Source of the DNA: Chromera velia
Lineage: Eukaryota
DNA length: 47,567 bases
NCBI GenBank assembly: GCA_018398765.1
Contig: JAHBMJ010000450.1
Span: forward strand, 1-47,567
Direction of reading: 5' to 3'
In this document: one piece after another, positions 14,625-47,451 of the stretch
Layout: each line of letters opens with the position of its first letter
How positions within the stretch are numbered: position 1 is the stretch's first letter
Notes under the pieces: generated by a model
Database searches by the model: none
What the model was told of the DNA's origin: nothing
What the model saw: the letters and a program-made list of their open reading frames with translations, nothing else
Program-made: the position numbers and the translations under genes

Positions 14625-14677
<53 letters not shown>

Positions 14678-17009
14678 GAGAGAGAGGAAAATGGATGGTG
14701 GAAGGCCGGATGGAAGGGAGAAAGAGGGAGGATGTCCAAAATGCTTTATCGGTCTTTGCATTCATATTTCCTAGAGAAAATATAGGGCACACCCCCCCTC
14801 CAAGACAAATTTGAAAGGCGCTGACCTGCACAAGTGGCTGAATATCCACCTTTCCGTACTTCTGGCTGTCTGTCCTGAGGGGGGCCCCTCCGGTGACGAG
14901 GAACTTGAGGTTCTGGAAGGGGACCAGGTTGGTGTTCATCTTTCGGAAGTCTGCATCCAGAGCTCCTGGAAACCTGCAAGGAGAATTAACAAAGGGAATG
15001 TAAAAATGTCCTGACAACATGGGGAAAATACTTTTCTGTTCCTCTCCCACTGACACTTGACCCACCTTAGGTTTGCAGTGAGCCCGGACATCATCATGCC
15101 AATGACAGCGTCACAGTGGGAGTACTCAGGGATCTCAATCTTCTTCGCCTTCCTGACCATCTCTTGGAGTGCCAGGTTGTCGAACATAAAGCACTGCAGG
15201 CAATCAAGAACAACAGGGGTAGAAAAAGGACACGGTTGGCAACCTATCCGGACATCCAAAAGAAGTTGCAGATAAGACAGACAAAGGAGACAAGAGGACA
15301 AAATCAGCAATCGTTTTTTGATTCGACATCTCAGCGTGGCGTTCACGAAAACACGTCAGGTAACCGAAGACATGCATGTTGAAGGTCTTCTCGTGCCTAC
15401 CTGTTGCGCGTACTCCTGCATGAACCAGGCATTCAGGGTAGCGTTGTAGGGTTCGACGTTGAGGGAGGAAGAATTTGGGTGTGTCATGAGACTGAAGGTC
15501 TGAATGATGGGGCCCGTCAGAGTCATGTCTGTCGACTTCAGGTGTTCATCAAAAGCCTCCAGGATCAAACTCGAAAGCCCCGACCCTGCACCTCCCGCCA
15601 TCCCGTGAAGGATCTGTGTCGCCTGCCACGAATCCATTCGCTCCACCTCTCGACGTGCAAGATCGCATACGGCCTTGGCAAGCGGCGGGCCGACGGTGTG
15701 GAAGGCTTTCGCCCAGCAGTTGCCTGTGGACTTGTCGTTATGCACGACATTCATGGGAGCCAAAAGGCGGTAGATGTCTTGCTGCCTCAAGCCGTCGATG
15801 AACTTTGCGTCTGTGTCGGCGAGAATCGCCCGGGGAACGTACCTGCATAGCGCGGAAAAGGTGTGAGGAGAAGGGAAGGAACACAAAAAACGGGGAATGG
15901 CTGAGCAGAGAGGGGGGGATAGGAGAGTGAAGAGAGAAGGGGAGGGGCAGAGGCAGGGACGAAGCATGGAACCAAGAGGGCGTACGGCAGGAAGATATTA
16001 GCAGGGAGGAAGGCAACAGTGAAGCAAAAAGGGAGATGTGTTTGGTTTGGAAAACGAAATCTGCGGGAGAGAGAATGGGCACGCCGACTGACTTGCCCTC
16101 CGAAGACTCATTGAAGTACGTCTCGACACACTGGAGATACACGTTTGAAGAGTGGTGGGGCATCCCTTCCTGGTTCGGGATAAATCTGCCAATTTCAGCT
16201 TTGGCACCTGCCGCTTGTTGTTCACGATTGTACAGAATGTAATGCTCTTCCGCCACGTCCCTCCAGAACTCCATCCCAAAGTTGATTCCAGGGCGCCCCA
16301 ACTGCATGAACAAAACACAATTTAATTTAAGAAAATACGGTCAGGCATGATCTGCAAGCTCGTAGTCGCCTGTGGTCTGGTCGAAGAATCGGACGGACCT
16401 GTACGGTTAGAATTTCTCGGTTGTGGGAGGAATATGGAACCGAGTGAGTGCCAAGCACGGTCTTGTCCTTCAAATCCTCTCTTTGCGTCGGGTGAATTCT
16501 GCAGCTGTACGTGCTCTGTCCTTTATGGCTCTTGTCCCCCTCTGCTCTATCCAGGAACTTTTTGCGGGACACACGCTGTTCAGCGTCACCTGCAGCGTTC
16601 TTGACATCACCTGTCACGAGGTTTTGCTCCAAAACAACTTCTGCTGATGTGTGCCAGGTGTCGCCGCCCGTCATGGGGCTTCCATCCGGAATGGCCGGCT
16701 TGGGAGCATTCACCACTCCTGTGTTTGCCTGATCTGCCAGTATGTCGTAAGCGTCCATGTGCCGCTGGCCCCGACTCAGCAATTCTGCAACAACACACAA
16801 CGACAGTTGAGGGTTGGGGTATGCAACCGTTGTTTTCTTTGCTGACTACATATAACTAACTGCAAGCGTTCCAGATGCAGCGAAGGAAACTTACTCGAGT
16901 CGTCAATGGCAAACGCCTCTTCGCCTTGTTTGACTTCATTTCTCTTCGCATGAGCAGCTTCCACGTTCGAAAAGTGCTGGAACGCACGGTCCTCATGTGG
17001 GTCGTCCAT
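12524..17009 (-). CDS. Highly divergent beta-tubulin-like protein, ~720 aa; exons 17009-16895, 16784-16399, 16301-16093, 15842-15401, 15193-15066, 14973-14826, 14556-14494, (14098-14084), 14015-13758, 13474-13382, 12838-12524
   Basis: Tubulin motifs across frame-consistent exons: REILTVQLG, FWRDVAEEH, KYVPRAILAD, GNCWAKA, HGMAGGAGSG, VEPYNATL, FDNLAL, LRFPGALDADFRKMNTNLVPF (Lys at the alpha-E254 position, so beta-like), RYL..FRG, FPDWIP..CDIPP, NTTAI, KKAFLHNYYAEG. No stops or frameshifts. An acceptor just upstream of the ATG suggests a further 5' exon. Confidence 0.9.
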
Positions 17010-25795: not shown

Positions 25796-26319
25796 TGCTA
25801 TGAGATAAGATCATGCATGAATCGAGCGTGGAATCTTAATCTTAGAAAGGGGCGAATGCTATGCGCTACTTAAGCACAGCTAGAAAGAAAATAGAAATTA
25901 AATGAATTGATTGTGATTTAAAGTAACACTGAGCAAAAGAGAATTGTGCGCATCACTCGCCTTCATGACCTAATGGTTAGCATATAACACTAACAAGCAA
26001 GAGGTTATAAGTTCAAGCCTCGCTACCTCCTTTTTAAGAATCAAAGAAAGAAGATGCAGGACGTTAACGTCTTGTATCATACAGATGTTGGCGTGTTACA
26101 CTTCGATCCAAATCATATGAAAAACTTCCGAAAGACTTTCTGGAAGACTACAATGAAATCAGATCGATCACCGAATCACAAGAAAGCTCCATGCTCCTGA
26201 CATTGATCGAGTCTGTCACTAGGGATCGATCTGAACCACTCCGGCAACATCAAGCCCTGAAGACCCTTGAACCTCTGCAAGCACTCACCAGCGCCAACCC
26301 CTCTAAGTAGACCTTAACA
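25796..26319 (+). repeat. 5' LTR (524 bp)
   Basis: Colinear and ~95% identical to 33306-33757 plus 35285-35356. Confidence 0.95.
25959..26035 (+). ncRNA. tRNA-derived Pol III unit inside the 5' LTR (not a functional tRNA)
   Basis: A box TGACCTAATGG starts at position 8, CT-AAC-AA loop at 32-38, B box GTTCAAGC at 53, TTTTT right after position 72. Acceptor and anticodon stems do not pair. Confidence 0.72.
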
Positions 26320-26714
26320 CGTGGTGATGCCTAGCTCGAGATCAACAAGATCAAAGAGCTGAGCGAACGGAGACCAACCTTCTCTGCTGAACAACAACTA
26401 TTCTACAAGCAATGCAGACCACCTTCTTCATCCAGAGAAGGTTCACCCAGAGGAAACCAGAACGCTATGATCCTCTACATGTATACTACAGAAGCCCACA
26501 CCTGCGAGCCATCAACTCAAACCTCAACTTGTACGCCCTTAACTTGGCTGTCCCTTTGGTGTCCTATACCTGTAAGGAGAAGAAGCAGGACCACATCGCA
26601 AAGCGCTACTAAAATTTCTGACAGAACCCCACTTTCTGTCCTCTGCCATAAATCGACATCAGACAGGACCATACCGTGAAGCGCTGCTAAAATTTCTGAC
26701 TGTACCACCTTTTC

Positions 26715-27160
26715 CTGCCCTTTTTACAAATCTCATGCATTCTACCTAACAGTGAATTTGACTTCTCTTCGTTTCTCTGTGAACGGCGAAGCCCTGCTCT
26801 TTTTGTGAATTTTACGCATTCTACCTGATAGTGAATTTGACTTCTCCTCGTTTCTCTGTGAACAGCGAAGCTCTGCCCTTTTTGCGAATTTCACGCATTC
26901 TACCTGACAGTGAATTTGACTTCTCCTCATTTCTCTATAAATGGTGAAGCCCTGCTCTTTTTGCGAATTTCACGCATTCTACCTGACAGTGAATTTAACT
27001 TCTCTTCGTTTCTCTGTGAACGGCGAAGCCCTGCCCTTTTTGCGAATTTTACGCATTCTACCTAACAGTGAATTTGACCTCTCTTCGTTTCTCTATGAAC
27101 GGCAAAGCCCTGCCCTTTTTATGAATTTCACGCATTCTATTTGACAGTAAATTTGACTTA
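26715..27160 (+). repeat. 79-bp tandem repeat, ~5.5 copies, in the retroelement leader
   Basis: GCATTCTA starts at 26737, 26816, 26895, 26974, 27053 and 27132. Confidence 0.95.
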
Positions 27161-28210
27161 TCTTTATCCTTCTGCGAAAGGCAAAACACATTACGAACTA
27201 ACATTACGAAGCGTTCGTGCGTTTTGTGACTTGGACTTTCCCGTTAAGCAAAAAGAAAATTCGACTACTTCCATCCCTGTGTGATTTACTTTTTTCGCTT
27301 GCCGTCTTTATATATACAAGCAGTCTACCTGCACATACAAGACAAATACAAGTAACTCTTTCTTCATTCGAATTTGGATTGCTTCTCTTTCTTTCCTTTT
27401 GCGAAGGAGATCTTTCTGCAAATCAGGCTATCTTTCCTCTCAGCAAGTTCAGAATTTCACTCTGCTGCACAAATCTTTCCTTCACAGCTAAACAAACCCT
27501 TTTGTTTTTCTTTGAATTCAGATTCTCTCTTCTCTTTTTGCTCTTCAACGGAACTCTACCTCTCTCACTTCATCAAGTTATTTTTTCTCTCTGTAAGTTT
27601 ATAATTTTCAACTTCCTTTACTTATATCAGCAGCGAACAGAAATCAGCAGCGAAACAGAAAACTCTATCTAACCGAAATACAAAAATAATCCCCTAAACG
27701 CATCTGACGCGAAAAAGAACGACTAACCAGGCAAACCCCGAAGAAATCACAACCAGAACGAGAAAGATCCTTTGAGCAATTTTGCCTGGAGAACTTCTAG
27801 AATTGTACACAAAAGAAAGGGAAGAATGGGCGAGACTCATCGTGAACGAAATTTTGTAGAGGTCCACAGAATTCATTGAGGACCAGCAAAATCTGAGAAT
27901 CTTCCTTTTAGATCAGTATTCATACACAGTCGTCGCTCATAATCGCCAGTCAGATGAAGTCATCAAAGCACTGAATCTTGACGTCACACGTTAGCTGAGA
28001 TTTATCAACAGTAACCGCCAACTTCTCCCTATATATATTCCTTCCCTCGCTCGCTACATTTGGGTAGACTGAAGGCTTTTCTGTCAAAAAAAAAAAAGGG
28101 AAAGAGAACCAAATATGACTCCAAAGCCTCAGGCCAAGAAAAAACTGACAGCCTGACAAAAAGCACTAGAAAAGAACAAGAAGAAAAACAACGCTAACAA
28201 ATTCCTTGAA

Positions 28211-29601
28211 ATGGACGAGTCTCTTCAGCATATGGAAAAATCTAAGCAAGTAATTAAGGAGCCATTGAAAAAGAAGGAAAAGGGCAAATCTTCTAATAAT
28301 AAAAATCGGAACAACAAAAAAAAGGAAACGGAAAAGGAGGTAGAGAGCCAAGACGAACAAATGGAAAAAAACGAAATACAAGAGAATGAGAAAGGGAAAG
28401 AAAGCAATAAGAAAAAAAAAAATAGAGAAGAGAGTGAAGGAGAATCAGATGAAGAAATGACAGATCAACAGACCAATAAAGCGCAGAAGAAGTCGTCAGC
28501 CAATTCCATGCAAGTACAGAAATGAGATTCGTCTGACAGTGTCCTGAAGGCATTAGCAAAAGAAGGAGTCACATTCAAACCAACAAAAGAAGGAGAATTT
28601 GAATTGATGTTTAACACAGACAAACTACATGTAAAGGAAACGACAGCAGACAGCTCAGCTTTGGTACCCTCACACCTTCCCTCTTTCATACAAAGAGCTG
28701 CTCTGCTACCGACTCCTCCACTGCTACCAACCCCAAACCACTTGTTCAACCCCCCAATTAAAGCAAACATCAATGCATATTCAGGAGAAAGAAAGGACAC
28801 ACGGAATTTTTGGAGAGCTTTCGATATGGACGCTACTGCCTTTCAATGGAATATCACCCAAATCCTGTTCTATTTCCGAAAATCACTGAAAGGAAATGCA
28901 CTCGACTGGTTTACAGACATATTCGACGAAAAAATGAGCAAAATTCAAACCATCACTGACCTGAAAAACACATTCTTCTCGAAGTTTGGACTCAAAAAAC
29001 CGCACGTAGAGAGAGTAGAGGCCAGCTCAGACAACTTGCAGCAAAGAGAAGAAGAAACAATCCAAGAGTATGCAGACAGGTACACTTTCCTTTGTCGACA
29101 AGCAAATTCGTCAATCGAGGATGAAAGACCGATGAAAAAATTTTGGAGAGGACTGTTCGATAAAATTGTAAAGTCGATTCTCACACAAAAGCAATACACC
29201 TCATTCGACGAATTAGTGGGGGCAGCAGAACTGATTTCACATAACTGTTACAGTGGAGCAACTGAGAGATCCAAAAAGTTTTTAGCAGTCGAAGAAACAA
29301 ATGGCGAAATGATAAAAGGAGACAGACTCACCGAGAGCCAGAAGGAAGAGCCCGCACCCTTTACAGAACGACGCATCTCCTTGTAGATCAACACGGTCCT
29401 GCAGCAGTGTTCGCACAAGCAACTTGTAAAAGATGCGGAGGCTTGACCCCTCACATAAGTGACCAGTGCCCTTTGCCACCAGACTGCGAATGCGCATATT
29501 GTGGCAACAAACGACATGAAAGACCAGCATGTAGAAGACTAAAAAAGGACTTGAAAGTAAATCGATTTACGCTTTTCAGTCTCAGAAAAAACAGACCTTA
29601 A
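28211..29601 (+). pseudogene. gag: Ty3/gypsy gag: K/E-rich N-terminus, capsid domain and two zinc knuckles
   Basis: YSGE...LKGNALDWF...LKNTFFSKF...LQQREEETIQEYADRY...FWRGL, then CKRCGGLTPHISDQC and CAYCGNKRHERPAC. In-frame TGA at 28523 and a frameshift near 29390. Confidence 0.88.
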
Positions 29602-29779
29602 CATGAAAAAAAAAATGTACAGAAGGAAGGCCGAAAAGAGCAAGGAACACTGAAGACCACGGAGAGAAACAGAAAAAGGGGAGAGAAGAAAGGGAGAGAA
29701 AAGGAAGAAAAACAATAAGAAAGACTAAACGAAAGCAGTCATACACATCCATTTGAACTGACAAAGAGTAGAACTCTTT

Positions 29780-29850
29780 GTCTCTTCGGTTACAGTATGG
29801 TCACACCTGCAATGATAGACAGCAGACGTGCGGTGAATCATGGTACACGA
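29780..29850 (+). pseudogene. Possible aspartic protease remnant
   Basis: PAMIDSRRAVNH follows the zinc knuckles. DSR is one G>A change from the catalytic DSG. Confidence 0.4.
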
Positions 29851-30139
29851 ACACGTCTAGTAGCAGCTGACAACAGGAAACCCGTCCTTGAAGGCGATTC
29901 CTTCACCTCTCTGAATCAAAGGCGAGGAGGGAAACAAACTTGAGAACGAAAGACTCGTTTCTTTTTTTTGAACGAAAGACTCGTTTCTTTTTTTGTTTGA
30001 TTTACAGAGAATCAGGAAAAGTGAATTTTATATCTCTTTTTCGATGAGACGCGACTTAAAGTTTTTGTTTGACTTGCATACGCTTGAAATGTACACATTC
30101 TTCAAGACTAGACAGACTTGTGAAAAGAAAAAAAAAATC

Positions 30140-30300
30140 TGTTCACAAAGTGAGAGAAGTGGTCAAAAAAAAAAAAGAGAGAGAGAGAGAGAGACAGAAG
30201 GTGCAATACTCCCTCACTTATGAAAGATCCCTAAACGAATTGTGGTTGATCAAAGTTGAAGACTACGACTGCCCTACATTCATTCGATAATTTGAGGCAG
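30140..30300 (+). pseudogene. Chromodomain remnant
   Basis: KVREVVKKK...QKVQYSLTYERSLNELWLIKVEDYDCPTFIR*FE resembles chromodomain VEKIL..R...KVEYLVKW...TWEPEENLDCPELI.EFE. Confidence 0.55.
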
Positions 30301-33300
30301 ATCAAAGTATGAAAAAGGGAGCCGCTATTCTTAAAGAGCAAGAAAGGAAACTCAGCAGTCAAAGAAAGAAAACAGATTAAAAAGAGAAAATCACGGCGCA
30401 GGAAGGGGAAGACGAAACAAAAGCAACACACTGTGACACAAAAGAGAGACTAGCAGAGCCGAGTTCAACGCTGGCACTGCATCCAAAACATACAAGGAAC
30501 AGAATGGGGAACACCCACCTCAGAAGGAGCTGGCAGCCCCAATCATAGGAGGCCAGTTCATGTTGACCAAGGCGGTGTGCTTCCAGTACTCTCACTTCCG
30601 GGGTTGCCGTGGGGAAGGCAGACGTAAACAGGAACTGAAGAGCTTGGAACTGAAAACCTGTAGACATGGAGAGATGAAATCGTCATCGACTACGTTCTCA
30701 ACGACAATCACATCGACAGTGGGAGATCAAGAGTCAGAGTGAGCACCGTCAACAACCAGAAATGGAAAACGTGCAGGCACTGGAGGTGCACAAAAGTCAT
30801 GCATAAGTCAAAAACCACCCAAACAGAGAGAAAAGATAGACAAGATAAACACTTACAAACGAATGATCAAATGAATAAAGAATGGACGGGTACATACATG
30901 TACATACCTGATTGATTCGGATCAGAATAACCAACTAAACTAAATAAAGGGCATGAAAGATGCGAGGCAAGATAAGTGTGTTGACAAAAAGACCAACTGA
31001 ATGACCCCCTAAGAACTGAAAAGGGATGAATAGAAACAAAACACCCATATACACATACTCACACATCTTTATCCTCATTCATCCACTCACCCGCACCTAC
31101 ATACACACGAACCCTCCCTGGAGCAACACCGCATACCGATCGGTGACTGATGAATAAAAGCAGATAACATAGACCTGCCGGGCGCACATAACCCACAGCC
31201 TCTGACCCTGACGCCTTCGTGGCGAGAAGACGCATGCGCATGCGCATATAAGGTCCCCCAGGGGGTAAGTTGGCCACTTACACCACCAGGACCTCCCAGG
31301 GAGAGGTAAGGTCACCCACTTAATCGCTCCTACTGGGCCTCTGTTCCCTAGTACATCATCATCGACCTATACACACACACATACACATACACACATACCC
31401 CACACACACAAACACTAAACCGAGCTTCGCGCCCAAGCTTATTCAAAAAAAAAAAACCGCCCAAGAAGTAAAACCTAGTGTTGGGCCTCCGACCCCAACA
31501 GTAATCTGAAGATGAGCCCGATGAGAAGAGGTGACTACACTCATTTTCAACTAAAAGTTAGAGAGGAAAAAGCATGAAAGGAAGCTAAATACCATACTAA
31601 AGAAGAGAAGCAAGTCAACAAACAGCAAAAGGTTCCTTACGAAATCACCCGCTCACATATGCACACTGAAATAGATATCTTTCAGAGCAGATGGGATGGA
31701 GGGGGGAGCCAGACAAACGAAATAAGACGACTGGCAGGCAAATGAAATCATAGGAGAAAATCAATTCAGCGAAATTGAACGAAATAGTGAATGGTGCAGA
31801 GACAAGTAAATCAAAGCCAGACAGCAAGAACACGGGAAGACAGTCTGTCAAGAAAGCACAAAGCCGACAAGCTCTTCCAAACAAAATAGAGGCAGAGAAG
31901 TGCAAAACGCGAACTCGCAGCAAACTTGACATCGAACAGCTGAGTCACTACCTTGCATAAATGGACTGACTCCTTTCCTCAAGCCGCTCTCTGTCGTGTG
32001 CCAAAGATCCCCCTACAGGAGGAAAGACGAGATAAAGAAGAAGGTCGTTGACGAGAGCCACAAGGAGGCAACATCGAGACAAAAAGGAGCACGAAGAACG
32101 CCACCGCCCCGCGCGCAAGGGCATGAGTAGACGACCAAGACCGAAAAGATGGAGATAAACGAGATGAACACCACCTAAGAGATCAAAGCGATGATTTAGA
32201 AGTATGCAGCAGTGATGAAAAGTCGCCGGGAGGAAGAGGAGGACAAGGAAGTGGACAAAACCGATATCGAAGCGGACGAGGCTCATGGAGACGGAAAGAG
32301 ACATCGGGTTCCAGAGGGGCAAGGACAACAAGGACAGGGGCAACATGGACGTAGGCATCGTGATCCTTGCCGTGGATGTAGGCATAGTGATCTTTGCATC
32401 AGAACACGAATGCGGAGAAGGACAAGACGGAGGTGAGGTGGATGTGGCGATGTAGAAGAGGTTGGAGATGGAGGAGGATCGCCTTGCATCTGAACATAAA
32501 CACGGAGAAGGACGAGATGGAGGCAAGGTGGATGTGGCGATGTAGAAGAGGTTGGAGAACAAGGACATGGAGAGCATCTGCAAGCACAGGGACAAGAGAG
32601 ACTGACATGAACAACATGAAGCACAAAATCAATATGAAGCTCTTGAAGGACGAGAACAAAGAGGCCACAGAGCACTCGCTCTGACCGGGAAGATGAGGGC
32701 CTCGAGAGACAGTGGCCAGCCAGAGAGTCGCTACGAAAGTGAGGTCGAGGTTCCAAGCAGGGACCAGACGAAACGATTGCAGAATAGGAACAAAGTCGTA
32801 AAGGAGACGGAAGAACAACACCGCTTTGAACTAAGGGGGACTTATGGAGAAGAGAGAACTGACGCTCCAAGGGAGAGTCGCCAGGGATGCGTCAAGAGTG
32901 ATAAAGATGTTGCGGTTGAATCGGAGCATCGAAGGAGGGATCGATCGTGCCATGTACGTGCTTCACGGAAATTTTTTCATCGAAATGTTCTGATCGAAAA
33001 TGAGAAACACGCCTCGGCCAAAAAATACGTGTTGCATCGTATGTGTTGCATTGCATGACATGTTGCACTCATGCACAGCTATATGGGCCCATTTGCATGA
33101 AAGACCCCGGCGCTTTCCGCAGGGGCCATCCGATTTTGCGCGCGCGAACTGAAGGACGTGCTGGCATGCCGGGCCTTTTTGACAACCCCGCGGCGCCCGC
33201 GCGCCGCGCACGCGAGATCTCGAGGGGCCGTCAGTACGCCAGAAAACCATATGCAAAGGCACGGATAGGCACGGAAAGGCACAAAAAAATATAGAAAGGG

Positions 33301-33468
33301 GCGAATGCTATGAGATAAGATCATGCATGAATCGAGCATAGAATCTCGATCTTAGAAAGGGGCGAATGCTATACGCTACTTAAGCACAGCTAGAAAAAAA
33401 ATAGAAATTAAATGAATTGATTGTGGTTTAAAGTAACACTGAGCAAAAGAGAATCGTGCGCATCACTC

Positions 33469-33545
33469 ACCTTCATGACCTAATGGTTAGCATATAACAC
33501 TAATAAGCAAGAGGTCATAAGTTCAAGCCTCGCTACCTCCTTTTT
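33469..33545 (+). ncRNA. tRNA-derived Pol III unit inside the 3' LTR
   Basis: Second copy with the same A box, B box and T5. The loop reads CTAATAA. Confidence 0.7.
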
Positions 33546-33757
33546 AAGAATCAAAGAAAGAAGATGCAGGACGTTAACGTCTTGTATCATATAGATATTG
33601 ACGTGTCACACTTCGATCGAAATCATATGAAAGACTTCCGAAAGACTTTCTGGAAGACTACAATGAAATCAAATCGATCACCGAATCACAAGAAAGCCCC
33701 ATGCTCCTGACATTGATCGAGTCTGTCACTAAGGATCGACCTGAACCACTCTGGCGA

Positions 33758-34616
33758 TATACAGTACGGTTAGGAGTTACTACCGGGCCCCTTGGGGAGG
33801 CGGCGAGTTACCGTCACTTTGGTAACCATGGGGCGGTGACTTAGAGGCCCAAGGGCCCCTACCACTACCATGGCAGTTCGGGCCAAGACCCCGGCAAAGG
33901 ATACAAAAAAAGCGCGACGCATGGATTGAAAAAAAATCCGTCTCCTTCAAATCCGTTTCAACTTTCGAAAATCAATTTTTAAACGAAGGTCAACCTTACT
34001 TGTGGTCAAAATTATGGAATCGTTTCTCTTCTGTCCCCTGTCAGAGCAGACGGACAATTGACGAAGGCTGTAGTTCGGCAGTGATCAGTGCTTTCTCACT
34101 GTAGGAGTGGTGGTGGTGGAGCTGCAGGAGGCTCCCGAGGAGGGAGGGGGGGCGCTGGAGCTGCAGGGGTCTCCCAAGGAGGGAGGGGGGGTGGTGGAGC
34201 TACAGGGGTCTCCCGAGGAGGGAGAGGAGGTAGTGGGGCTGCAGGGGTCTCCCGAGGAGGGAGGGGGGGCGTTTGAGCTGCAGGGGCGCTTGAGGCGAAG
34301 TGGGTTGTTCTCTTTCTCTCTCTCTCTCTCACACACACACACATATACACACACATGGTGACACACACACATACACACATACACACACACACACACACAC
34401 ATACACACATAAACACACGAAAAGAGACTCTCTCAGCTTCGTTAGTCTCCATCTCTATTCCTCTTGCTCAAGCTGACTGGAAGGGAGCCTTCCGTCTACA
34501 CGTCCAGGCCTCATTCTCCCTTGCTCACATCTTGATTTTGTCTTTGTTTGTGTATGTCTGTGAGGGCCGGGTTGACGACCATCCTCGCTCTCTGTCACTC
34601 ATACACACACACGCAT

Positions 34617-34657
<41 letters not shown>

Positions 34658-35276
34658 TACACACGAAGAGAGACAATCTTTTTTCTTTTGTTCCTCTCTT
34701 CGTTCTTCTTTTTTTTGTTCTGTGTTTCCCTCCCGGCTGGAAGAGGCAAACCATGCGTTCATTTAGGGTTGACCGGCGGAAGTCTGGGTGGGGAGGTAGC
34801 GATACACCTCCCCCCTAGTCACCCCCCTAGGTCGTATTTTCGTTGGAGTCCGCTGGATCAATCAATCAGTACGTCACTGGCAGGCCTCACTAAGTGAGCT
34901 CGCATTCATGATATGTTTCATCGCACAGTTGAATAATTGGCAAAGTATTACAGCATCATAATTATAACATAATATCATCATTTATAGTGATAGAGTAATA
35001 TCTCTGATATTATAATTATTATCTCAGATCTAAGAGTTTAGCAAGATTGATAGAACAATGGTGTTTACTCTGTAGCCTTTGTTGATTGTAGATTTGATGG
35101 TAAAACCAGATAAAACAGGTTTAAAGATCACTAGTATTAGGAAAAATATGTAATACTACTACTACCATGGTCATGGGACTAAAAACTACTACCGTAACCG
35201 TGAAATTGGTAACCCGGGCAGCCTAGCGGCCATCCGGTAACCATCCTACTATCGTTACTCCTAACCGTACTGTGTA
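33758..35276. mobile_element. Non-autonomous hAT-type DNA transposon (1519 bp) nested in the 3' LTR, carrying gene-like cargo
   Basis: TIR TA(T/C)ACAGTACGGTTAGGAGT. 8-bp TSD TCTGGCGA/TCCGGCGA, which is single-copy in the 5' LTR. Confidence 0.93.
34110..34290. repeat. 39-bp GC-rich tandem repeat (~4.5 copies) with 13-aa periodic coding potential
   Basis: GGAGCTGCAGGGGTCTCCCGAGGAGGGAGGGGGGG units. Minus strand reads PPLPPRETPAAP repeats. Confidence 0.85.
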
Positions 35277-37100
35277 TCCGGCGACATCAAGCCCTGAAGA
35301 CCCTTGAACCTCTACAAGCACTCACCAGCACCAACCCCTCTAAGTAGACCTTAACACTATTATAAACTATTATAAAAGACAAAAATTTATGGTTTCATAT
35401 ATTGAAATTAAAAAAATGAATTATACCCTAATCTAAACTATAGTGTCAACGTATATATTAAACTCTTTGTGGTTGATATCAACTGAGGGTTGCGTTTTTC
35501 TTTTAATTTTTTTTTTAATTTTTCTACGTTTTAGCATGTAAGTTCAGTGTCTATAATCAAACTTTATTCACAATTCGACCTTTCCAATCATCTCCATATC
35601 CGTCCACAAAGAAATCAAAATAAATAAACAGTTTCTCATGGCCCCAGACTAAACCCATAGAGACATATGGATTCATGCACAGCTATGCATCAATGAGATG
35701 TGAAACATGCACAGTCTCTCCCGCACTTGAACGTTCTTATGCGATGATAGGAATGGCATCCAGGCGATCCAATGAGATCCGTTGCTGCCTGTACATTAAA
35801 GACAAAAAAGTGAGAGACTTGCATGCGTGTATGTTTTTCCGTTTCGTGATTCTTTTTCTACCCCTCGGCGTTCCCATCTGCATGATGTCTTTCTTTCTGG
35901 GTTTTCTTCTTCCATCGATCGAAAGAAAAAGAAAACATCTATTTCAATGGCAGGCATCCAGACTCCCAGAAGGTGCTCCGGGTCTGTCGTAGTTTTCTGT
36001 CTGAGGAGAGAGAGAGGGGGGGGGGCGGGGGAGGGAGAGATTCCAGAGATCAAAATTCCGCAACAACATTCACCCTGTCACCTGAGTGACAGAAGCTTGC
36101 ACCCCTTTCCGCTCGCCGAACCTTTCATTGGAATGCTCCCCTCCCCCCCCCCCAAAGAATAGGAGTTGATGTTGTCGCTGACACACAGCAACTTGAGGGA
36201 AGTACGGTTCCACTACATGGACCTGTGTCTCGATGCATCTCCCCCACATGGTCAGCTTCACAGATCTGAACCCTGAAGGGGGACAGTCATTTCTTGTGCT
36301 TTCGTCGGTTTCTTTGTGAACAAAAAGTCGAATAATTGTTTGTTGGGTGTCCGCATCATTTAAATTGAGTCATGATTGAGAGTAGTGCAAAAGCAAACAA
36401 AACGAGCGTTCTCCGAGTGCTCCATCATGTTCTCACTCACGTGAGTCGAGTCGAAAATCAATGATCGAAAAATGATGATCACCAAATCAAACAATCACTC
36501 AGTGAATCCACCATTCAATTCTGTGTGTATTCCCCCAGCATGCAGCCATCTGATTTTTCATCGCGCGTGCACACTTCACTGCAAAGTTTTGATCCCCGTT
36601 TCGTTTCCCTTCCCTTTCCCGTTCCCTTTCCCTCTCTCCCGGTCTCTCATGCCCTCACGTGCACAGGCTTTTTCGTTTTTCAAAAAGACAAAAGGCAGAC
36701 ACCAGACAGTCAACTTGCCTGGCAATGCGGGATTGTTTGTTGAACATCTCGCAGCTCCGGCTCATTTCTCTCGCCGAGGCGTTGTCAATCGATTGGTCAT
36801 GCAAATCAATACTGTCAGTTTTCTCTTCTCTGTCATAAAGCGGAATGAGACGAAGCGAGGCAAGGCAAGACGAGGACCAGCCAAGAACGAAAGGACCGAC
36901 CAGACTGACTTACAGTTATTCTGGTGCAGGACTAAAACACAAACAGTCACAGCATGGGTAGCTGGACGAAGGAGGAATCGAAATGCCCTTCGTTCCTCGA
37001 AAAACTTTTTATCTATTCCCTCTATTCCCACTTCTTACAAAGTTGACTGCCGCCCCACTCTCCTAGCTGCCTCCCCACCCCCCACACCCCACTTTTGATT

Positions 37101-40100
37101 TCAGAAGTCCGCAGTCCAATCCTGCAAGCAATGAAGGGAGAGCAGAAAGTCACACATGGGACGAGGAATGCTGTCTGTACGTTTGCTTATGCTTTCTCCC
37201 CTCTTGTCTGGCTCTTCGTGAGGAAATTAATGATGTGTTGACATATGCATCCACTGAAATGCATCAGGACACAGTCACTCTGGGTACTTGGAAGCGCATA
37301 ACAGGCACAGTGAATTATCAAACGATGGCGGCGCATGTGATCAAGGTATGACACAGAACTCCAAACTGAAGCCTTCGTTGACAGTGGGCACCGGCTTTTA
37401 CTGCAGCGACTTCAATTGGGGAACAACGACAACGTTCTGAATAATTCAGGAAGAAAGTTCAAATGGTTCTGGTTCTATCTGTCAGTCTCCGCATTCATTT
37501 CATAGATCCGCATTTATATCCACGGTTTCGCTAGTTGATGCCTGACTTTTCTTCGTTGTAGACTTGGGCTCAATTGACTCTAGTTTAGTTTCCTTTCCTT
37601 TCCTTTCCTGTGCTGCTGCCGCACTGTCTGACTGACTGACGGACTGACTGACATCTTCTGGAGCCCTCAGTTCGGCAGCCTGCAGGTAGGCAGGGAAGAC
37701 GAAAGAGGAAAATGGAAAGATAAAGGAACGCCGCAATTTGTTCTTTCTTTGTTGCAGATGGAGTATGACGGGAACATCGGCACAGCTCAGACTATGTATG
37801 CTCTCCTCGCTTCGGCCTGGGATTCTCAGCTTCCCTTCTCTCTCCCTCTCCTTTTTTCTCTTTTTCCTTCCCTTTCTCCCTAGCTCCTTCTCTCCGTCTC
37901 TCGGTCTTTTCCTTCTTACTTTCTGTTTGATGTGTCTGCTTGCCTCTCTGCCTGTCTTGATTTCTTCGCGTGTTAGTAGAAGATCTACGTTTCACCCCCT
38001 CCCAACCCTCTCTGTTTCCCGATCTCTCTTGCAAGGATCGATTGTCTGACTGACTGACTGACCCTCTTGAGGTCCTGCATGATCTGTCCCTTGGAGGCGA
38101 TCCTGGGCTCTCCCTGTCCCTTTGCCGTCTCATCCACTGACGGCACGAAGGGGGGGGAGATGGACCTCGAGAGGATCGCCTGCCAGTTCACAGGCCTGCA
38201 GGCGCAAAGCGAGAGAGAGAGAGAAAGACCGACGAAAAATAGACGGCAATACAAAGGCCAAGCGGCAATGGAAAGACGGAAAAAAGAAGCCCGCGCCGCT
38301 AAACGAAAACACGCACACATTTGAAACAAAGAGAAAAACTCCGCTCTGCTAGATGACATAAAAACGCGGCAAGATTGCAACATATCAAGAGAACTTTAAG
38401 ACGAAAGATTCATTTCTGCGTTGACAAACTCGGTCTTTCCTCGGTGGTACAATCAGCTCAGCAAACTTGCTGAGTCGCTTACTCCTTCCCTTACTCCTAC
38501 CCTCCATCTCTCACTCCCTTTCTCACTCATTGCCTCCTCCCTGACTCCTTCACTCCCTCTCTCTTGCTCCCTCCTTCATTTCGTAACTCCCTCCTCACTC
38601 ACTCACTCATTCACTCCCTCACTCACTCAAAGAAAGGCTGCGCCTTGACTTCCTCCGCGCTGTTCAGTCGCACAGCGGGACTCTTTTCCAGAAGTCTGCA
38701 TGCACGAATCCAGCAGAAGGGACGGGCACATCCAGGAGGTGAGAGAGGAACAAGCTTTTTGAACACACAGAACAAGTGCGCTTCCAATGCCAAAGTGAGG
38801 AGAGTCGAACTCGTTGAGAGAAGCGGGAAGCAACAAAGAAAAGGGAAAGATTGCTGCTTCAATGAGAGAAGTTGAACAGAAATCCTTGTCTATCCTGAGG
38901 AGGCCCTCAAAGCTGGTCAGGAAAAAATGAGAGAAGAAAAACAAAGAGCAGAGCAGCGCCTCGACACTTTGAGAATACGAAGAGAAACTGGGACACCCGA
39001 CAGAACGTTCTGCAAGCACACAGAAGACATCCATTTGAACGACTACTTGGCACGTAAAATGCCCTCTACCTGCCTGCCTTCCTGCCTGCCTGCCTGCTCA
39101 CCTGGACATGACTGCTTTGGCAGGCTCATCCAGGACATGCGCAGGAAAATCGAGTGGTTTGTAGAGAATTTCCTTGAACAGATCCAAGTGCCCCTCGCAT
39201 TTGTATCCGAAGGGGAGGGGCCCACACACAAACTCGTAGATGCACACCCCGAGGGCCCACCAGTCGACACCCTTACCGTACCCCTTTCCCATGATCACCT
39301 GCGGGCGTCAGAGAAAACGCACACACAGAAGAGCCCGTCAAAGTTGAACGACAAGAGATTGAGGTCGGTACCTCTCTTCTTTTAAGAGACTTCTCAAGAG
39401 TTCTGGTTGTATGCGAAGGAGTGCAGTTTGCGAAAGTAGTTTTGTCTTACTGAAAAAAAGGCGTTGCCTGTCTCCATGCTATGATATCTCTGTTCCGGAT
39501 CGTAAGTTTCTTTTGCAGCTGTCCGCCTTTCTCAATTCGGCAATTATTAATAGCTCAATTATTTCTGCGTACCTCCGGAGCCAGGTATTCTGGTGTTCCG
39601 ACAAGAGTGTACGTTCGTGCCGTTCGCTTGCAGGTTCCGAAATCTGCAGACAACCCAGAGTCACCCTCTTTGCCAAAGGAAGCAATCGCACCGACACAGA
39701 ACAGACGTTCAAGAGAAGGATGGATGCACGAAAGTATTGCTCGAGAAGAGTAGGCACAGAAAAAGACATGACATGCAGAATCTCAATTGGAGGGCCACGA
39801 CGTGAAAACAGCAAAGCAACGCTCCCTTTCCACACACTTCGCTTGGCAATTCGCTTCGCTGACTGACTGATTCACTGACTGACTGACTGACCGACTAGTT
39901 TGACGAATCCCTCCCCATCCAGCATCACATTCTCGGGTTTCAGATCCTGCACACAGACAGCCGTGCAGCATCACAGTGAAGAGGGAAAGGGACGTCGGTA
40001 GACGCGCATGATTGCATGACAGGATGGCGGCATAGACAAATTGAAGCAAAATAATGCTTCCAAAGACCAGTCGCAGATGAGACCAACAGCGCAACATCAA

Positions 40101-42654
40101 AGAATAATTTTGTGCCGACAATCCGAACCGCTCAGGCACTGCACAGCCGATCATGTGAAATGAAAGTCCGAGACCTGTTCCAGACCATGCCTGCAAGCTT
40201 CTTCTGACTTCTGTTTCTTGAGGCTCTGCTGCAACGAGGCGACCCGTGAGCAGCGCAAATCCTTCACGAACAGGAAGAAAGCGAAGGAGGGAGCCCTTCC
40301 GACCTACCCTGTACAGATACCCGCTGTCATGGATGTACTCGAGACCCAGAGCCTGCAGGTGAGAGAGACAAGAAACACAGTCACACAAGTAGGCAATCCT
40401 CTCGGCAAGCTGTCCTCCTTCCCTCTGCATGATCTTGCGTGTTGTTTGTGAAGACGAAGAAGAGTGTGTGTGAGTGGCCAACACGCAGAAACGAAAGCAC
40501 AACCAACTCCAAAAAGAACATGGGGCAACGCGGCCATAAGCTGAAGTAAAGGCAACGTTTCTCTGTGCCTGGTGAATTTCGAATGGGGGGCAAAGCAGGA
40601 ACGAGCCAGGAATATGACCAATAGCGGATTCATTTCGAATTCTCACACTCACACTCACCCTCACACTCACACACAAACACAAACACTCTGGTAAAAAGAA
40701 AGAGTCAGAGCTGCCTGTCCCCGGGAAGAAACTCAAAACAACCTACAGGACGTCAATCAAATGCGGTGAAACAGTCGATGAGTCGAGAGAGGAGGGAAAC
40801 AACAACAAAGAAAACTGGAGGAAGAGTCAGGACCAACAATGGAGGCGGCAAAGAACCGCGACTGTTCCCCCGTTAAGTGTCCGATTTCCCGAATCGCCGA
40901 GAACAAATCTCCACCTTGGAGAAGTTCGGAGACGAAAAAGAGAAAATGCGCACCCCTCACTGTTGCCACCCCCGTCAACACACACGGATGCCAATTTTCC
41001 ATCAGGCGGTCACGTTCCAACAGCACCGCCTTCCTCGCTCCTCGATCCAGACCCTGTCTCTGTATTGTCTTTAGTGCCAACTGCACGCAGCAACGTTACA
41101 TTTCATTTCATTTGTTCTTCAAGAGGGAGGATCACCTTTCTTGTCCGTGCTAGCAATAGCCGCAGTGCATCCTTCACCCGTTGGAGGTCCTTCAGCCGAC
41201 CAGTCACCCGACCAAACGACCCATCAAACCACACTCAAACTGAAACTTGGTGAACCTTCACACATTACCGCGTCTGCACTCCGTTGTTAAACGCACTCAA
41301 TGCCCGACTTTTTCGTTCACATGAACATGCATGCACCTTCTCTTCCTGTCTGTCTTCCCTCTCTCCGTGCCTGCCTCCTTTCTTTCTCTCGCCAAGTACT
41401 CAGACGGTCTACACTCCCAGAGGGAGACCCAAGTGAATCAGTAGAAGAGCAAAAATATTTAATTCACGCCACTTGCCTGCATTTGCGATTTGCCCGTCTG
41501 GCTTTTGGAGGCCTCTGCTTTGCTCTTCACAGAGAAAACAGCCCCGTAGGAGCCCTCCCCGAGTTTGTTGTTGATCGCTAGGTCCTCCACCTTCAGGTCC
41601 TGAAGCTCTGTCCTCTCTCTGAACAGACTGTCTAGACCACTCAGCACCTCCTGAAGGCAGACAGACAGACAGACAGAGGAGGACAGGTGTGTGTCTCGAC
41701 TAAAGAGAAGACATGCAGAAACCCTGATTGACTGATTGACCTGAATATGGCTTCAACACGATGAAAACATGACGGCAGGCAATTGAAGCGGAAAAGCAAA
41801 GGCGGACAAGCAGACGCAGAGAGAGCGACCGACAAAAAGACAAATAAACACACACCGGAGCATGCCAAAATGCAAGCAAAGAAGCAAGCAACCAAGCCGA
41901 GTAATACAGACCAATCTCCCCTCAACCAACCTCAAAGTCCCTGTAGCCGAGCACCAGACACTGCAGAGAGGGAGGGAGGCAACAAAAAACATCTGTAGGC
42001 AGAGAAACCAATGGAACGATGTGCAGATGCGAAACAGTGAGAAGAAGAGAGAGCGATCTGCAAGAAGAAGACAGCAGCAGTCTTCAAGAAAAAGCAAGGA
42101 GCGACCAATGTCGCGTTGCGCCTTTTTCCCAGCAGCCACTCTCAACTGGCTTTGCCCCACATCACAGTTTACCGAGCAGCTGACCACTGTGTCTTCCTCC
42201 GCGGTGCAGGTCGCTGTGCGGAGTCTCGCGGTGTTCTTCTCCTGCAAACATGCAACCAAGGCCATGCGTACGCGCATACGCGTCCAGAAGAAGAACACAG
42301 ACACAGAAAACGAAGACTGGCAAAGATAACTCTTACTGCTCACACAAGAGAACAGAAGTGCAAGAGGACACCGACGAGGCCCGAAGAGAAGAAAATACAA
42401 ATTGCAGGACAGACTCGAGATGATGATGGATGCAGTGTCTGTGAAGGAAGAATGAGACTCTCCTCTGACCGACCTTGTTGAGCAACGGCCTCTCTCCGAA
42501 GTAATCAAACTTCCCCACGTATCTGAATTAAAGCAACACACACACACACACACACACACACAAAGTACACGCAAAGTGACCAGTTGGGGTATGCTGTAGT
42601 GGTTTCTCTACAGCCTCGTCTTCGGTCGATCACCTCTGTCACTGTTTCAAAGCC

Positions 42655-42695
<41 letters not shown>

Positions 42696-45600
42696 CTCTT
42701 CGCGAGGGAAGAAGGAGATGGAAGAAGTCAGCAAGATAGGAAGACGCTATAAAGCTAAGGGGCCAAACCTAAAATGCGGCACAGAAATTGAAAACGGAAC
42801 GGACCTTACATGCTTGCCTCCCTTGGACACCCTGACTCTGCCACTGTAAATGAAAAATAAGTCGTCTGCAACTTCGCCCTCCACCACGACGTTCTCCCCT
42901 TTCTGCAAAAAGAAAGAACAAAGGAAAACAAGCAATCAAGTAAGTACAAAGAAAGACAGCCCGTCAGGGATAAAGAAGAAAGACTCTCGAAGAAGAGTAA
43001 ACAGAACAGCGGGAAAGGACTGCATCCAACTGAAGCCAATCGGTCTCTCTCTGCCCTCCATTCACCAAATAGGAAGGAGGACACGCACCCGCCAGCTCAC
43101 CTCGTACTTTGCGTGAGCCACTTTCTCGACCATTTGAGTTCGCACCTGCAAAGATGATTCAAACGTTTTGTTTGTTTTTCTAAAAGGTTTCGGGGACTTT
43201 TATTTTGTGTGTGTCTTTTCAAAAGTCAGAAAATGCCGTTCCCTCTACAACGATGACCTGCAAGGATCAAACGAAAAGAAAAGGAAAGGAAACTTGATCT
43301 AGATGAGAACGATGGGAGAAAAGACGGGGGAATGGTCCTGAAAAGAAACGAATGAAAACAGATGACATTTTGAGCACATGATTGTTTCTTTATCTCTTCT
43401 TTTTCACGGGCGATCGATACGTAGAATACTAGAGATCCATCCTTCGAGTGAAGATCCATTCTTCACCTCATGTATGTGCGTACCTTTTTGATGATGGATG
43501 CGGACTTTTTGGTTCTCAAAAACAGAGGGAGACGGCTGAAGACCCTGTTCAACTGCACCGCTCTGACGACCTCGAGAAGTTTTTTCGGTTTCGGGTCGGG
43601 AAGGTCTTCTGTCATCACCCTGCAGGGAGGCAGGCAGGCAGGCAGGTCGTCCAGTAAGATCGAGTCATTTAAAGATTGCGTCAGAAAGAACAAAAGAGAG
43701 AGAGAGCAAAAGACACGGGGTAACTGACCAGGTTATTCAACGAAAGGCAGAGGAAGAAAGCGGCAAGCAGGAATGAACGGCTACGGGAAATTGGCGACCA
43801 AAGCAGAAAAGAGAGAAGCTCTAAGAACCCGGTGCAGTCCACTCAGCACACGGGAAAGATGAAATCAGTGGCCTCCTCTTGGCTGAAAACAAACACCCAA
43901 AAACAAAACGGAGGAGTCGAACAAACAGACGGACACACAGAGATGGCCGAATAAATTCAGGGGCGGACTCAATCAGTCGAGAGCTCTTCAAGACCGCCAC
44001 TTGCGCGCTCGTTGTGACGCGACACCCGTATGTCATGGGCTGCACCATGCAACATGCATGGGTTGGCATTGAGACACGTAGGTATAGAAGGTATAGAAGG
44101 AGAATTGACACTTGTACAGAGGGAGAAAGAGCAGGAATGACTGCCCCAACTTGCACAGCAGACCAAAGAAAGTGGAAGAGGGCAGTGATCGACTCTCGAA
44201 CAACAGGTAAGAGCGGGGGGGAAAATAAGAGAGCGTCCCAGAAGCCCAAATAGGGAAAATCATCTTGCACCTGGTGAAGTGAATTGCACTACGCAGCCGT
44301 CGAAACATGAGTGCCATAATACGCGAATCGACGAACCAGATCGCGAAGAAAAAACTCGGCCCCGTAAAGTTCCCCCGGCTCCATTTTCCTCTCACACCCC
44401 GTGTGTCCCCCCCTCCCTGAAGGTGACGGAAAACCACTTCCCGCTTTTCCTTTCACTTCCAATTCTTCCCCCTTCTCCTTCTTCTCCTCATCCTCCGGGG
44501 AAGAGGACGCGAGAGACGAGATGTCCGAAGTGTCCAATGCCCCCGCCGTCAATTGTTTCTGGAGTGCAATCAAGTTACCCATGCTCTTGCTGCGAGGACC
44601 GATACCCCCGCTGGGCCCCCCAGCCCCCGACTCCCCTTGCATGCGGAAGGAGGCTGCGAGCGGGTCCCCGTAGAGAAGCCGCGGAGTCTCCAGCGCCATT
44701 GTGGTCTGCAGGCAGTTTCGTTTTCAGGAAGGAAGAGGGGCAGGAATCACATGAAAAGACAGCAGCGAGAGAAGTCAAAGGAGGAGTGCTAACAGTCTAT
44801 TGACCGACAGGCTGTATGGCTTCTTTTTTTCTGCTGACGGACAAGCAGGCAGGCAGACACACAGGCAGCCAGCGAGGACACTAGAGTCAGTGAGGCAAAA
44901 AAAAGAGACACCAAGAAGGGCATGTAGGGACAGAGCCATCAATCAATCCAGGACTCACCCCTGGGTTGGGATTGTCCTCGTTGCTCTGTGCTCTGGAGAG
45001 TGGCAGGAGGTCCATGGAGAAACGGGTAGACCGTCGGAGCTGTTCGAAGCCCCCCGCAGGCATAGTCTTCATCAGTCCCTTCTGTTTCATCTCGTCCCTC
45101 CTTTGCCGCCCCCCCCTGGCTGATGAGGCCACCACAGACCCCACAGACTGCCTCCGTGCCCCTCCCCCGTCTCCATGAGGACCGGATGCTCCTGCAGCCT
45201 CTGACTGCTGAAGCGCCTCTAATACAAACGCTGGATGCATCGCTGGAAGGGTGGGTGCGTGAGGGGCATGCGCACCGACAGCCTCTGGTTGGTCTACCGC
45301 AGGGAGAGACACCCTCCGTCCCCTGTTGACTGCAGGAGGAGGGCCCTCCACTCCCACCAGCTCCCCCTCGCCCTCCATCAACAGTGCCATCGTTGGAGGG
45401 GCCCCGTTTTTGAAAATGTACTCTCCCGCACTCAGACTGCAGATCTCCCAGGCCTCTGCGATTGCACCCTGTTTGTGAGAGTCCATGAAATGCATCCAGT
45501 CAATGCCTGCACTTTCAACGACACTCTTCAACATTGCCCGACGGAACAGTTGAAACACTTTCGACTTTCCTTCGAGAACTTCTTTCTTGGAGATGACCAG

Positions 45601-47073
45601 ACATGTGGCCTTGTTTACAGCAAGAGCTGTAGAGGTCTGCAAGGTTTTGCTGGCAGGACTGCAGTTGCCCACAAACGCGCCTTCTGCCAGCACGGACTCC
45701 TTGGCACCGAGGACGGCGATTTTACCTGCACGCACGAACACGCGGGGGGGAAAGGGGTCCAATAGATTGAATGATCATAATGGTGGTCGTCCTTTGTGCC
45801 ATCATCATCATGATCATGATCATCATCGACCGTATGACCTTGCATCCGAACATTTAGCCTATTCGACATTTAGCCTATTCGAGCTTGACAGAGTCCTTTC
45901 CTCTTCTCTTACGCCTTTGCTTCCGCGGCTTTCTTCTCTCTAGCCCTTCTGATTCCAAGTCACCTTCCGAGCAAACTTTCGGTATGCGCACTTGCAGAAT
46001 TCCTGGTGATGTCACTTCTCGTGGACTATGCAAGACAGCAAAAGAAGGACAACAGGGCCTCCCTTCAGACTGTCAGGCTCCCTGTGCTCTTGGTCGACAA
46101 GTGAAATTCTTTCTTCTGCAACAACTTCCTTCCAAGACCGCCGCACGACGTGACCGACCGCTTGCCAGCAGCAACACCTCTGTTGCCACGTCACCCAAAA
46201 CGACGACTTCCTGTCTGGCCTTGAAACTCCGCCTCTCCATTTGCTGCATGAACCAAGGAAGGAAACACAAGAAGAACAAGAGATGCTTTTGCAGCCGGAG
46301 CTTTGTCAGGCGTTCGTTTGTGTGAATTCTGCAGAGGATAGAGCTTTATGAGAGAGAAACGCTTTTTGGTCCTGCATTGTCACGAAGTGGCCATGCCTCC
46401 TTACATGTTCGCTTTTCTTCCTTCGTTACAGAAGAATGTCTCTTGTCTCCTTGGTTGAAATGCTATGGATATGCAACGGATTAAGAGGGGGCTAAGAGGG
46501 CTGTCTGTCGCTTACCGAGAGCAACTGGGAGATTTGCTTCTCACTGACGGACTTCCCGATGACAGACCGAATCAACTCTGCATCCATTTAGTCAATCATT
46601 CATCCACTGAGTGATTCGAACTTTATTCTTTTTATTCTCGTTTCATTTTGACTCACAGACGGATGGATCCACCACATCGAAAAAGTATGACCAAAAATAG
46701 TTGACGTCATGAACACGTCTCGTCCTCTTTGGGCAAGATCTGCTTTGTGTCTTCTTCCCGTGGCAGCGTATCTTGAGTGTATGTTGTCCCTGGAAGAGTT
46801 CACCGACGACGTTCTTTTCCACAGCTTTCTTTTCTTAACAGCTTTTCCTGCTGAATACCGCTTGCTTCAACGTTTCTTCTGTTGAAATGCAGACCAAAGC
46901 CAAAATCAGTTCTTGAAAAGGGACCACCAGATGGACAAAACGAACAAAAACAAAAGGAATTCAATTAAATGAGCCAAATGATCAACCAGCCAACCGACCG
47001 ACCAACCAGTATCAGTCAATCTTCGATGGCTCGCGTTCTCTTTGTCTGCTCGTCTCAGGGCGTTTCGAAGAGC
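37101..47073 (-). CDS. PKG: cGMP-dependent protein kinase (apicomplexan-type PKG-like), ~22 exons seen, 5' end beyond the window
   Basis: At least three cNMP-binding domains, the last with DYFGERPLL...RTAT and ERTELQD. Kinase motifs LGEGSYGAV, LALK, VSELLQGGDLF, YRDLKPEN, DFGTCK, TYTLVGTPEYLAPE and GVDWWALG, then AGC tail PPFVP and a final 21-nt exon DWTADF* (37121-37101). Confidence 0.9.
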
Positions 47074-47451
47074 CTGCACGTACATTATTGAAATTGATTT
47101 CTCAGTTTGCCAAAACATTAAAAACTTTTCCGACAACTAATCCCTAACATTAAAAAGGCTCGATGAGGGAGCAGAAGAGACTGGGAGTCAAAGACAGACG
47201 AAAAACAGAAGAGAGTGCCGGTTTCACAAAGACGTAAGGCAGACAGGAAGCAAGGAACAAAGAAAGGATTGTGATGCTTACAAAAACAAAGATGTACAGA
47301 CAGAAAGAATCGAAAACAGATGAGAAGGTACACCAGGACATAGACAGGCACGAAGAAAAGGAAGAGAATTTCAAACGAAAACAGAGAACAATTGACAGGC
47401 AGACAGAGAGGCGGACAAAGAGGCCGGAAAGAGAAAGAGAGAGAGACAGCC

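Follow-up and report, generated by a model that had tools for sequence, protein, structure and literature searches.

What makes the copies of a transposable element (TE) drift apart almost exclusively by transitions? The question is raised by a stretch of 47,567 nt from the free-living alga Chromera velia, which is related to malaria parasites (contig JAHBMJ010000450.1, positions 1 to 47,567; hereafter the window), in which a retrotransposon at 25796-35356 carries two long terminal repeats (LTRs) with a markedly one-sided set of differences. An earlier note on this DNA had read the pattern as a possible undescribed genome-defence system aimed at repeats, akin to RIP (repeat-induced point mutation) or to deamination of dense 5-methylcytosine (5mC). 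We find strong C>T polarity in several unrelated TE families, on both strands and largely outside CpG, and this part of the proposal stands; classical RIP, in contrast, is not supported. The note had also assumed an apicomplexan-like host with few TEs, which was mistaken, since Chromera is a TE-rich chromerid alga, whose TEs total about 30 Mb compared with 1.5 Mb in Vitrella (PMC4501334). We regard the C>T decay signature as real, strong and apparently unreported, in a lineage in which it was unexpected.

Divergence of the LTR pair

The LTRs of the retrotransposon have TG..CA ends, and the element lies between perfect CTAT copies of a target-site duplication (TSD); its 3′ LTR (33306-35356) is interrupted by a second element with terminal inverted repeats (TIRs) at 33758-35276. 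Over 524 aligned sites the LTRs differ at 24 or 25 positions, the count varying with the choice between the TSD copies of the nested element; 23 or 24 of these are transitions, and the sole transversion lies at 26109/33619. The count made by eye in the earlier note was thus accurate, as was its remark that many of the transitions lie outside CpG (16 of 23). Compared with a transition/transversion ratio (Ts/Tv) of 2, the 23:1 split has P = 0.0008. The 5′ LTR holds T or A at 10 of the transition sites (6 C>T, 4 G>A) and the 3′ LTR at 14, where one strand predominates (11 G>A, 3 C>T). At 25837-8 a single CpG has become TpA through two hits. Two in-frame TGA codons (28154 and 28523) and a DSR motif stand in the gag frame; the earlier note counted such lesions as fitting the pattern, and their origin from C>T or G>A is conjectural. 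No match to reverse transcriptase (RT) or integrase was found in six frames of the internal region.

When the element was compared with its family, the window had T or A where the family has C or G at 35 of the best 40 of 2512 places, 3 of the 35 lying in the nested TIR element. At 26243 and 33520 the two LTRs agree with each other yet differ from the family. The shared G>A at 33520 implies that some changes are older than this insertion and that an already mutated copy was still mobilised.

Direction and strand of change across element families

For polarisation, contigs of four sequencing runs (X1-X4) were aligned to window positions 24400-44300 and 1-7100, and a change was called private if the window copy deviates at that place from the other genomic copies of its family (listing threshold 60%). 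The runs and the window share one genome, since the single-copy contigs listed match it with 0-1 differences, and X3 and X4 resemble one data set filed twice, so that agreement among the runs is technical and not independent. Over the TEs, contig depth exceeded that in the flanks by factors of tens to thousands, which roughly indicates multi-copy families.

In X1, the private changes within window 1-7100, which holds a miniature inverted-repeat transposable element (MITE), a TIR-like element and a long interspersed nuclear element (LINE), were almost all of one kind: 119 of 135 were C>T or G>A, the near-exclusive C:G>T:A change in repeats of any class that is looked for in RIP. The remainder comprised 5 reverse transitions and 11 transversions, and X2-X4 gave 118-119 of 134. 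Both strands were affected alike (61 C>T, 58 G>A). The resulting Ts/Tv of 11.3 (95% confidence interval 6.1-23) exceeds the values published for TEs of wheat (p = 9e-8) and LTRs of mangroves (p = 0.005). Per site, 5.0% of C/G positions had changed, compared with 0.20% of A/T positions by T>C and 0.11% for each type of transversion; C>T thus runs at about 25 times the rate of T>C, CpT sites alone at about 11 times, and a sequence evolving under this spectrum would be expected to settle at 4.4% GC. The other copies show the same direction at 1207 C>T/G>A places. The unpolarised spectrum of window 24400-44300 has a Ts/Tv of 4.1-5.6 by places, but is saturated and includes microsatellite-borne contigs, and only the direction was drawn from it.

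The bias recurs element by element. Among the private changes listed, 10 of 12 in the element at 1660-3080 and 24 of 28 in the LINE region at 3080-6330 were C>T or G>A. In the MITE at 905-1138 all five mismatches between its 30-nt TIRs and the one TSD mismatch are transitions, and in the nested TIR element the single TIR mismatch (20 nt) and the single TSD mismatch are each C>T; all the mismatches that the earlier note had named in these elements are thus transitions. The (CA)n tracts of the nested element are broken by TA. A 79-bp tandem array inside the LTR element departs from its column majority by 30 transitions (13 C>T, 13 G>A, 4 T>C, 0 A>G) and 1 transversion, so that C>T/G>A makes up 26 of 31 changes; ratios of transitions to transversions in a 27-bp and an 18-bp repeat were 2:1 and 6:1.

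Two of the affected families are retroelements, and at many of the best-ranked variant places no aligned contig has the window allele, contigs being prone to drop rare variants. Errors of RT, cDNA editing of the APOBEC type, or artefacts of the assembly or the library might thus be suspected. We consider an origin of this kind very improbable. The symmetry of the strands speaks against it, as do the changes in the MITE, the TIR elements and the initially identical LTR, TIR and TSD pairs, and the common direction of change in the other copies. An artefact in particular is unlikely, because contigs of two studies carry the window alleles at the MITE end or the 3′ LTR end into unique flank with 0 differences; the 3′ LTR alleles from 35300 onward are matched exactly by such a contig. 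Together these data largely refute this group of explanations.

Sequence context of the changed cytosines

Context and strand runs were analyzed in 80 rows listed over two sets, of which 69 were polarised C>T (34 and 35 sites). The following base had a clear influence (observed/expected: CG 23/11.2, CA 27/20.7, CC 10/15.6, CT 9/21.4; chi-square p<1e-4, n=69), the order being CG (2.05x), CA (1.30x), CC (0.64x) and CT (0.42x). CpG was enriched (p=0.0004), as decay of 5mC on both strands would give, and 46 of the 69 sites nonetheless lie outside CpG. No significant effect of the preceding base was detected (p=0.12), and CHG sites occurred as expected (12 versus 12.6, 0.95x), with no excess of the plant type. 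A reading without any context preference was dropped in view of the next-base gradient in the pooled sites. A preference for the 3′ base is what one expects of a C5-methyltransferase target, whereas AID/APOBEC enzymes differ in this respect; the strand balance, the indifference to the 5′ base and the presence of the signature in a MITE and in TIR elements all depart from APOBEC-type editing. Runs tests gave p=0.58 and 0.064 for the two sets, the strands being apparently intermixed, without clear clusters.

These features bear directly on a RIP-like mutator proper, in which a DNA deaminase or an enzyme with the DNMT fold would recognise repeats through homology or chromatin and convert C to T without leaving a lasting mark. 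The high rate relative to T>C, at CpT sites as well, the second rank of CpA in the context series and the involvement of all TE classes would suit such an enzyme, and there are conceivable sources for one, namely a DNMT4-like protein in the sister genus Vitrella (PMC10538959) and AID/APOBEC-like deaminases that occur sporadically in algae (PMC5889660, whose main text does not list Chromera). The details, in contrast, are not those of RIP. CpG ranks ahead of CpA; with the RIP indices in their usual definitions, the composite index was positive in 2 of 47 1-kb windows and negative in 45, at -0.73 in the LTR and -0.57 in the internal region; CpA is not depleted in the LTR element (observed/expected (o/e) 1.10-1.17); and about 5% of cytosines have changed per copy, without clear one-strand tracts or a 5′ motif. 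Chromera has moreover retained its roughly 30 Mb of TEs (PMC4501334), and DNMT4/RID is described as confined to fungi (PMC12344493). The classical form thus fails on context, index and load, and we hold a RIP-like mutator in general to be unlikely.

Host genes, introns and spacers

Two host genes served as controls, a divergent beta-tubulin gene and a cGMP-dependent kinase-like gene. Two exons of the window are 100% identical to UniRef proteins of Chromera velia CCMP2878, in keeping with a chromerid host. Their 25 introns (8460 nt) have 47.5% GC and a TpA o/e of 0.37, their fourfold sites 61% GC. The spacers of the window, by comparison, have 26-34% GC and a TpA o/e of about 1, which bears out the contrast between AT/TA-rich spacers and GC-rich genes drawn in the earlier note. 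In (CA)n tracts, TA stands in 11 of 84 units within TEs but in 0 of 59 units in host DNA (p=0.0028). Six 4-mer tracts of the host that are in phase contain 43 variant letters, which are not independent events, and only 7 of these were C>T or G>A (the out-of-phase tracts at 38586 and 37626 were excluded).

Short GC- and CpG-rich islands, consisting of an 18-bp tandem and GCGC runs with CpG o/e >1, occur at 11290-11600, 17450-17650 and 33100-33230; lying in spacers and near the 3′ LTR, they are possibly promoters or termini shielded from decay.

A proposed cytosine mark on silent repeats

The reading that we prefer, and to which we give even chances, is that a cytosine mark on silent repeat chromatin slowly deaminates and thereby erodes the TEs of Chromera from C to T. 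It is suggested by the combination of a 3′-base gradient without a 5′ motif, action on both strands, low load, involvement of all TE classes and spacers rich in AT and TpA. The putative mark would most likely be 5mC, at CG and non-CG sites of repeat-rich silent DNA, and its slow deamination would strike both strands of all four kinds of element (LTR, LINE, MITE and TIR) while probably sparing gene bodies. Because LTRs, TIRs and TSDs start out identical, and DNA elements use no RT, the changes would arise in the chromosome after insertion; they would build up gradually and, with time, may turn old repeats into AT/TpA-rich spacers.

Several observations, drawn from the counts, the spacers and the enzymes of the host, limit this reading or weigh against it. 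In the LTR pair, taken as 24:1, Ts/Tv has an exact lower bound of 3.9 (p=0.07 versus 5.16), so that the pair alone is compatible with a ratio of about 5. The context gradient comes from 69 sites, the two sets differ, and the LTR element by itself gives p=0.27 (CpG p=0.14). Ordinary ratios were found in a 33-bp tandem repeat at 24581 (6 transitions, 8 transversions) and a 39-bp tandem repeat at 34104 (9 and 6), both of them within multi-copy DNA and probably reflecting old divergence within the master element. Two spacers of single-copy depth are AT-rich as well (32% GC, TpA o/e 0.99) and one TSD base in unique flank has changed, so the boundary may run between genic and non-genic DNA instead of between repeat and unique DNA. 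Finally, 32 of the 43 host 4-mer variant letters point toward GC, which GC-biased conversion would also give.

The points from spacers, flank and microsatellites would equally follow from an extreme C>T bias of the whole genome that does not target repeats, with GC-biased gene conversion or selection keeping introns and codons GC-rich. In other protists, genome GC is known to lie far from its mutational equilibrium. Single-copy spacers of 31-34% GC with a TpA o/e of about 1, host introns that are mildly CpG-poor (o/e 0.72) and the lack of a canonical DNMT among those listed for Chromera (PMC12344493) would all fit such a bias. The gap that it must bridge here is nonetheless very large, from an equilibrium of 4.4% to an intron GC of 47.5%; the difference in (CA)n tracts between TEs and host DNA speaks against it, and the low intron TpA is the opposite of what accumulated CA>TA and TG>TA changes would leave. 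On balance we see a genome-wide bias as possible but rather improbable.

Spontaneous C>U deamination that goes unrepaired in silent chromatin, where uracil excision would have poor access, needs no DNMT and no other modifying enzyme, and predicts changes on both strands, a weak context and a genic/non-genic boundary like that of the spacers. The five-fold gradient from CG to CT is not predicted by this process alone, and we think it quite improbable, below a RIP-like mutator.

The surveys differ on the enzymes with which Chromera might write a cytosine mark. One counts five PF00145 genes (PMC5890265 supplement); a later, phylogenetic one assigns four genes to DNMT2, a methyltransferase of the tRNA type, and none to DNMT1/3/4/5/6, to DIM2 or to the orphan class (PMC12344493 Table S1). 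DNMT2 activity on DNA is at best weak and disputed (PMC5699548). Since the same table holds evident false zeros for well-studied species, such as Phaeodactylum with 0 throughout, the listed absence is only weak evidence. Candidate writers would be the four DNMT2 paralogues and the PF00145 gene left unclassified, the fifth, whose existence follows from comparing the two surveys. A contrast between five DNMTs in Chromera and 0 in Vitrella was rejected, as another survey assigns Vitrella the DNMT4-like protein (PMC10538959). We also entertain, as a tentative and doubtful possibility, that a repeat-directed cytosine mutator without a canonical DNMT, be it a DNMT2 paralogue, an unclassified methylase or a deaminase, erodes every TE class. 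A 1072-aa protein, P0016, in which an OTU domain (PF02338) is joined to a C5 methyltransferase domain, was noted as well; it is unrelated to the window.

Our literature search returned no report of C>T decay of repeats in Chromera or other chromerids, most subscription papers lying outside its coverage. Chromera is not named in the main texts of 10.1101/2024.10.28.620566, PMC5890265, PMC9998398, PMC12344493, PMC10538959 and PMC5889660, and the word "mutation" does not occur in the main text of the Chromera genome paper, as far as it was available (PMC4501334).

Other features of the window

The coordinates of the elements and control genes are collected in Table 1.

Table 1. Repeats, control genes and spacer discussed in the text, with positions in the window
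Feature	Position	Strand	Remarks
High-copy MITE	905..1138		8-bp TSD
Single-copy AT-rich spacer	1139..1659		31% GC; putative end state of decay
Very high-copy non-coding element	1660..3080		inverted ends (TIR-like)
Broken LINE (RVT_1) and adjacent repeat	3080..6330	+	5′-truncated
Divergent beta-tubulin gene (control)	12527..16758	-	7 introns 47.8% GC, fourfold sites 61.5% GC
5′ LTR	25796..26319	+	524 nt, TG..CA ends; gag-only Ty3/gypsy-like LTR element
Internal region	26320..33305	+	start like a primer-binding site, broken gag (Retrotrans_gag), protease-like remnant, purine-rich polypurine tract
79-bp tandem array	26714..27164	+	5.7 copies; inside LTR element
90-bp duplication	32394..32558	+	inside LTR element; 8 transitions, 1 transversion
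3′ LTR, first piece	33306..33757	+	ends in left TSD copy of nested TIR element
Non-autonomous TIR element	33758..35276		8-bp TSD; hAT-like by TSD length only
3′ LTR, second piece	35277..35356	+	begins with right TSD copy of nested TIR element
cGMP-dependent kinase-like gene (control)	37581..47085	-	909/973 residues mapped; 18 introns 47.5% GC, fourfold sites 60.9% GC

No transposase match was found in the nested TIR element. At 34330-34663 it contains microsatellites like those of the host, along with a 39-bp tandem repeat that looks coding, which suggests captured host sequence. In the left part of the window, repeat depth peaks over the element at 1660-3080, where it reaches about 70,000 compared with about 30 in the flanks; joints such as 2091-2874 suggest a nested structure. 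A further MITE-like element, at 20915-21257 in an AT-rich spacer, has a perfect 24-nt inverted repeat with zero mismatches between its arms.

The beta-tubulin-like protein (650 aa) has long extensions and a GTPase exon 30-38% identical to other tubulins, and has a UniRef entry for C. velia under the name "tubulin beta chain". An intron-rich gene at 7300-10990 on the minus strand carries long (TGAC)n tracts in its introns; a Pfam scan of its raw open reading frames gave no match, and to judge from a motif seen by eye it may encode a CDC50/LEM3-type flippase subunit.

Implications and comparison with known systems

Whether a targeted mark or a genome-wide bias holds, ages based on LTR divergence in the Chromera genome would be inflated several-fold. 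If a cytosine mark drives the decay in a species whose methyltransferases, as far as classified, all belong to DNMT2, the long debate over methylation of genomic DNA by DNMT2 could be put to the test in an alga that grows in culture, as could the ancestral control of TEs in the apicomplexan lineage. A mutator that works without a canonical DNMT would give the closest free-living relatives of Apicomplexa a defence resembling RIP, and would offer a lead on how the apicomplexan lineage shed its transposons. Were the bias genome-wide instead, the mutation spectrum of Chromera would rank among the most one-sided on record.

Repeat-confined C-to-T erosion as strong as the change seen here (Ts/Tv about 11, 88% one-way) is textbook knowledge in fungi and weaker in plants. 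In its working, the decay in Chromera resembles RIP or methylation decay, yet it does not pass the CpA-motif test of RIP. In Neurospora RIP and the TpCpG hypermutation of Pucciniomycotina (PMC3318451), as in Chromera, TE copies differ from their family by C>T on both strands, while single-copy genes look spared there and may be spared in Chromera; Chromera differs in having no single motif or 5′ preference, negative RIP indices and a low load per copy, and no counterpart of the Neurospora enzyme RID/DNMT4 is listed for it (PMC12344493, with the false zeros of its table). In Zymoseptoria tritici, mitotic C>T mutation in repeats depends on Dim2, with >98% of changes at CA and CG spared (PMC8016269). 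It resembles the Chromera pattern in being associated with repeats, overwhelmingly C>T and largely non-CG, and is tied to a cytosine methyltransferase; in Chromera, by contrast, CG leads (23 of 69) and CA has 27 of 69 over its larger expectation, and DIM2 is not among the enzymes listed (PMC12344493).

Decay of methylated TEs in plants is likewise gradual and led by CpG, with an excess of transitions in TEs and LTR pairs; Ts/Tv is 2.8 in wheat TEs against 1.9 in introns (PMC2996936), and 5.16 in mangrove LTRs (bioRxiv 10.1101/263830). The Chromera ratio of 11.3 is higher, there is no CHG excess, and no homologues of MET1, CMT or DRM are listed. Among protists, Naegleria gruberi has 5mC confined to repeats in all four dinucleotides, with DNMT1 present (PMC12344493), and so may provide a model for the type of repeat mark predicted from the Chromera spectrum, although the Naegleria mark was measured and shows no CpG preference, whereas that of Chromera is predicted from mutations alone. 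In Bigelowiella natans, mutation-accumulation lines revealed TpA hypermutation of integrated viral DNA (bioRxiv 10.64898/2026.01.13.699255). This parallel from a non-fungal alga is likewise localised and transition-only and strikes foreign DNA; it runs in the opposite direction, from T/A to C/G, and at a strict TpA motif.

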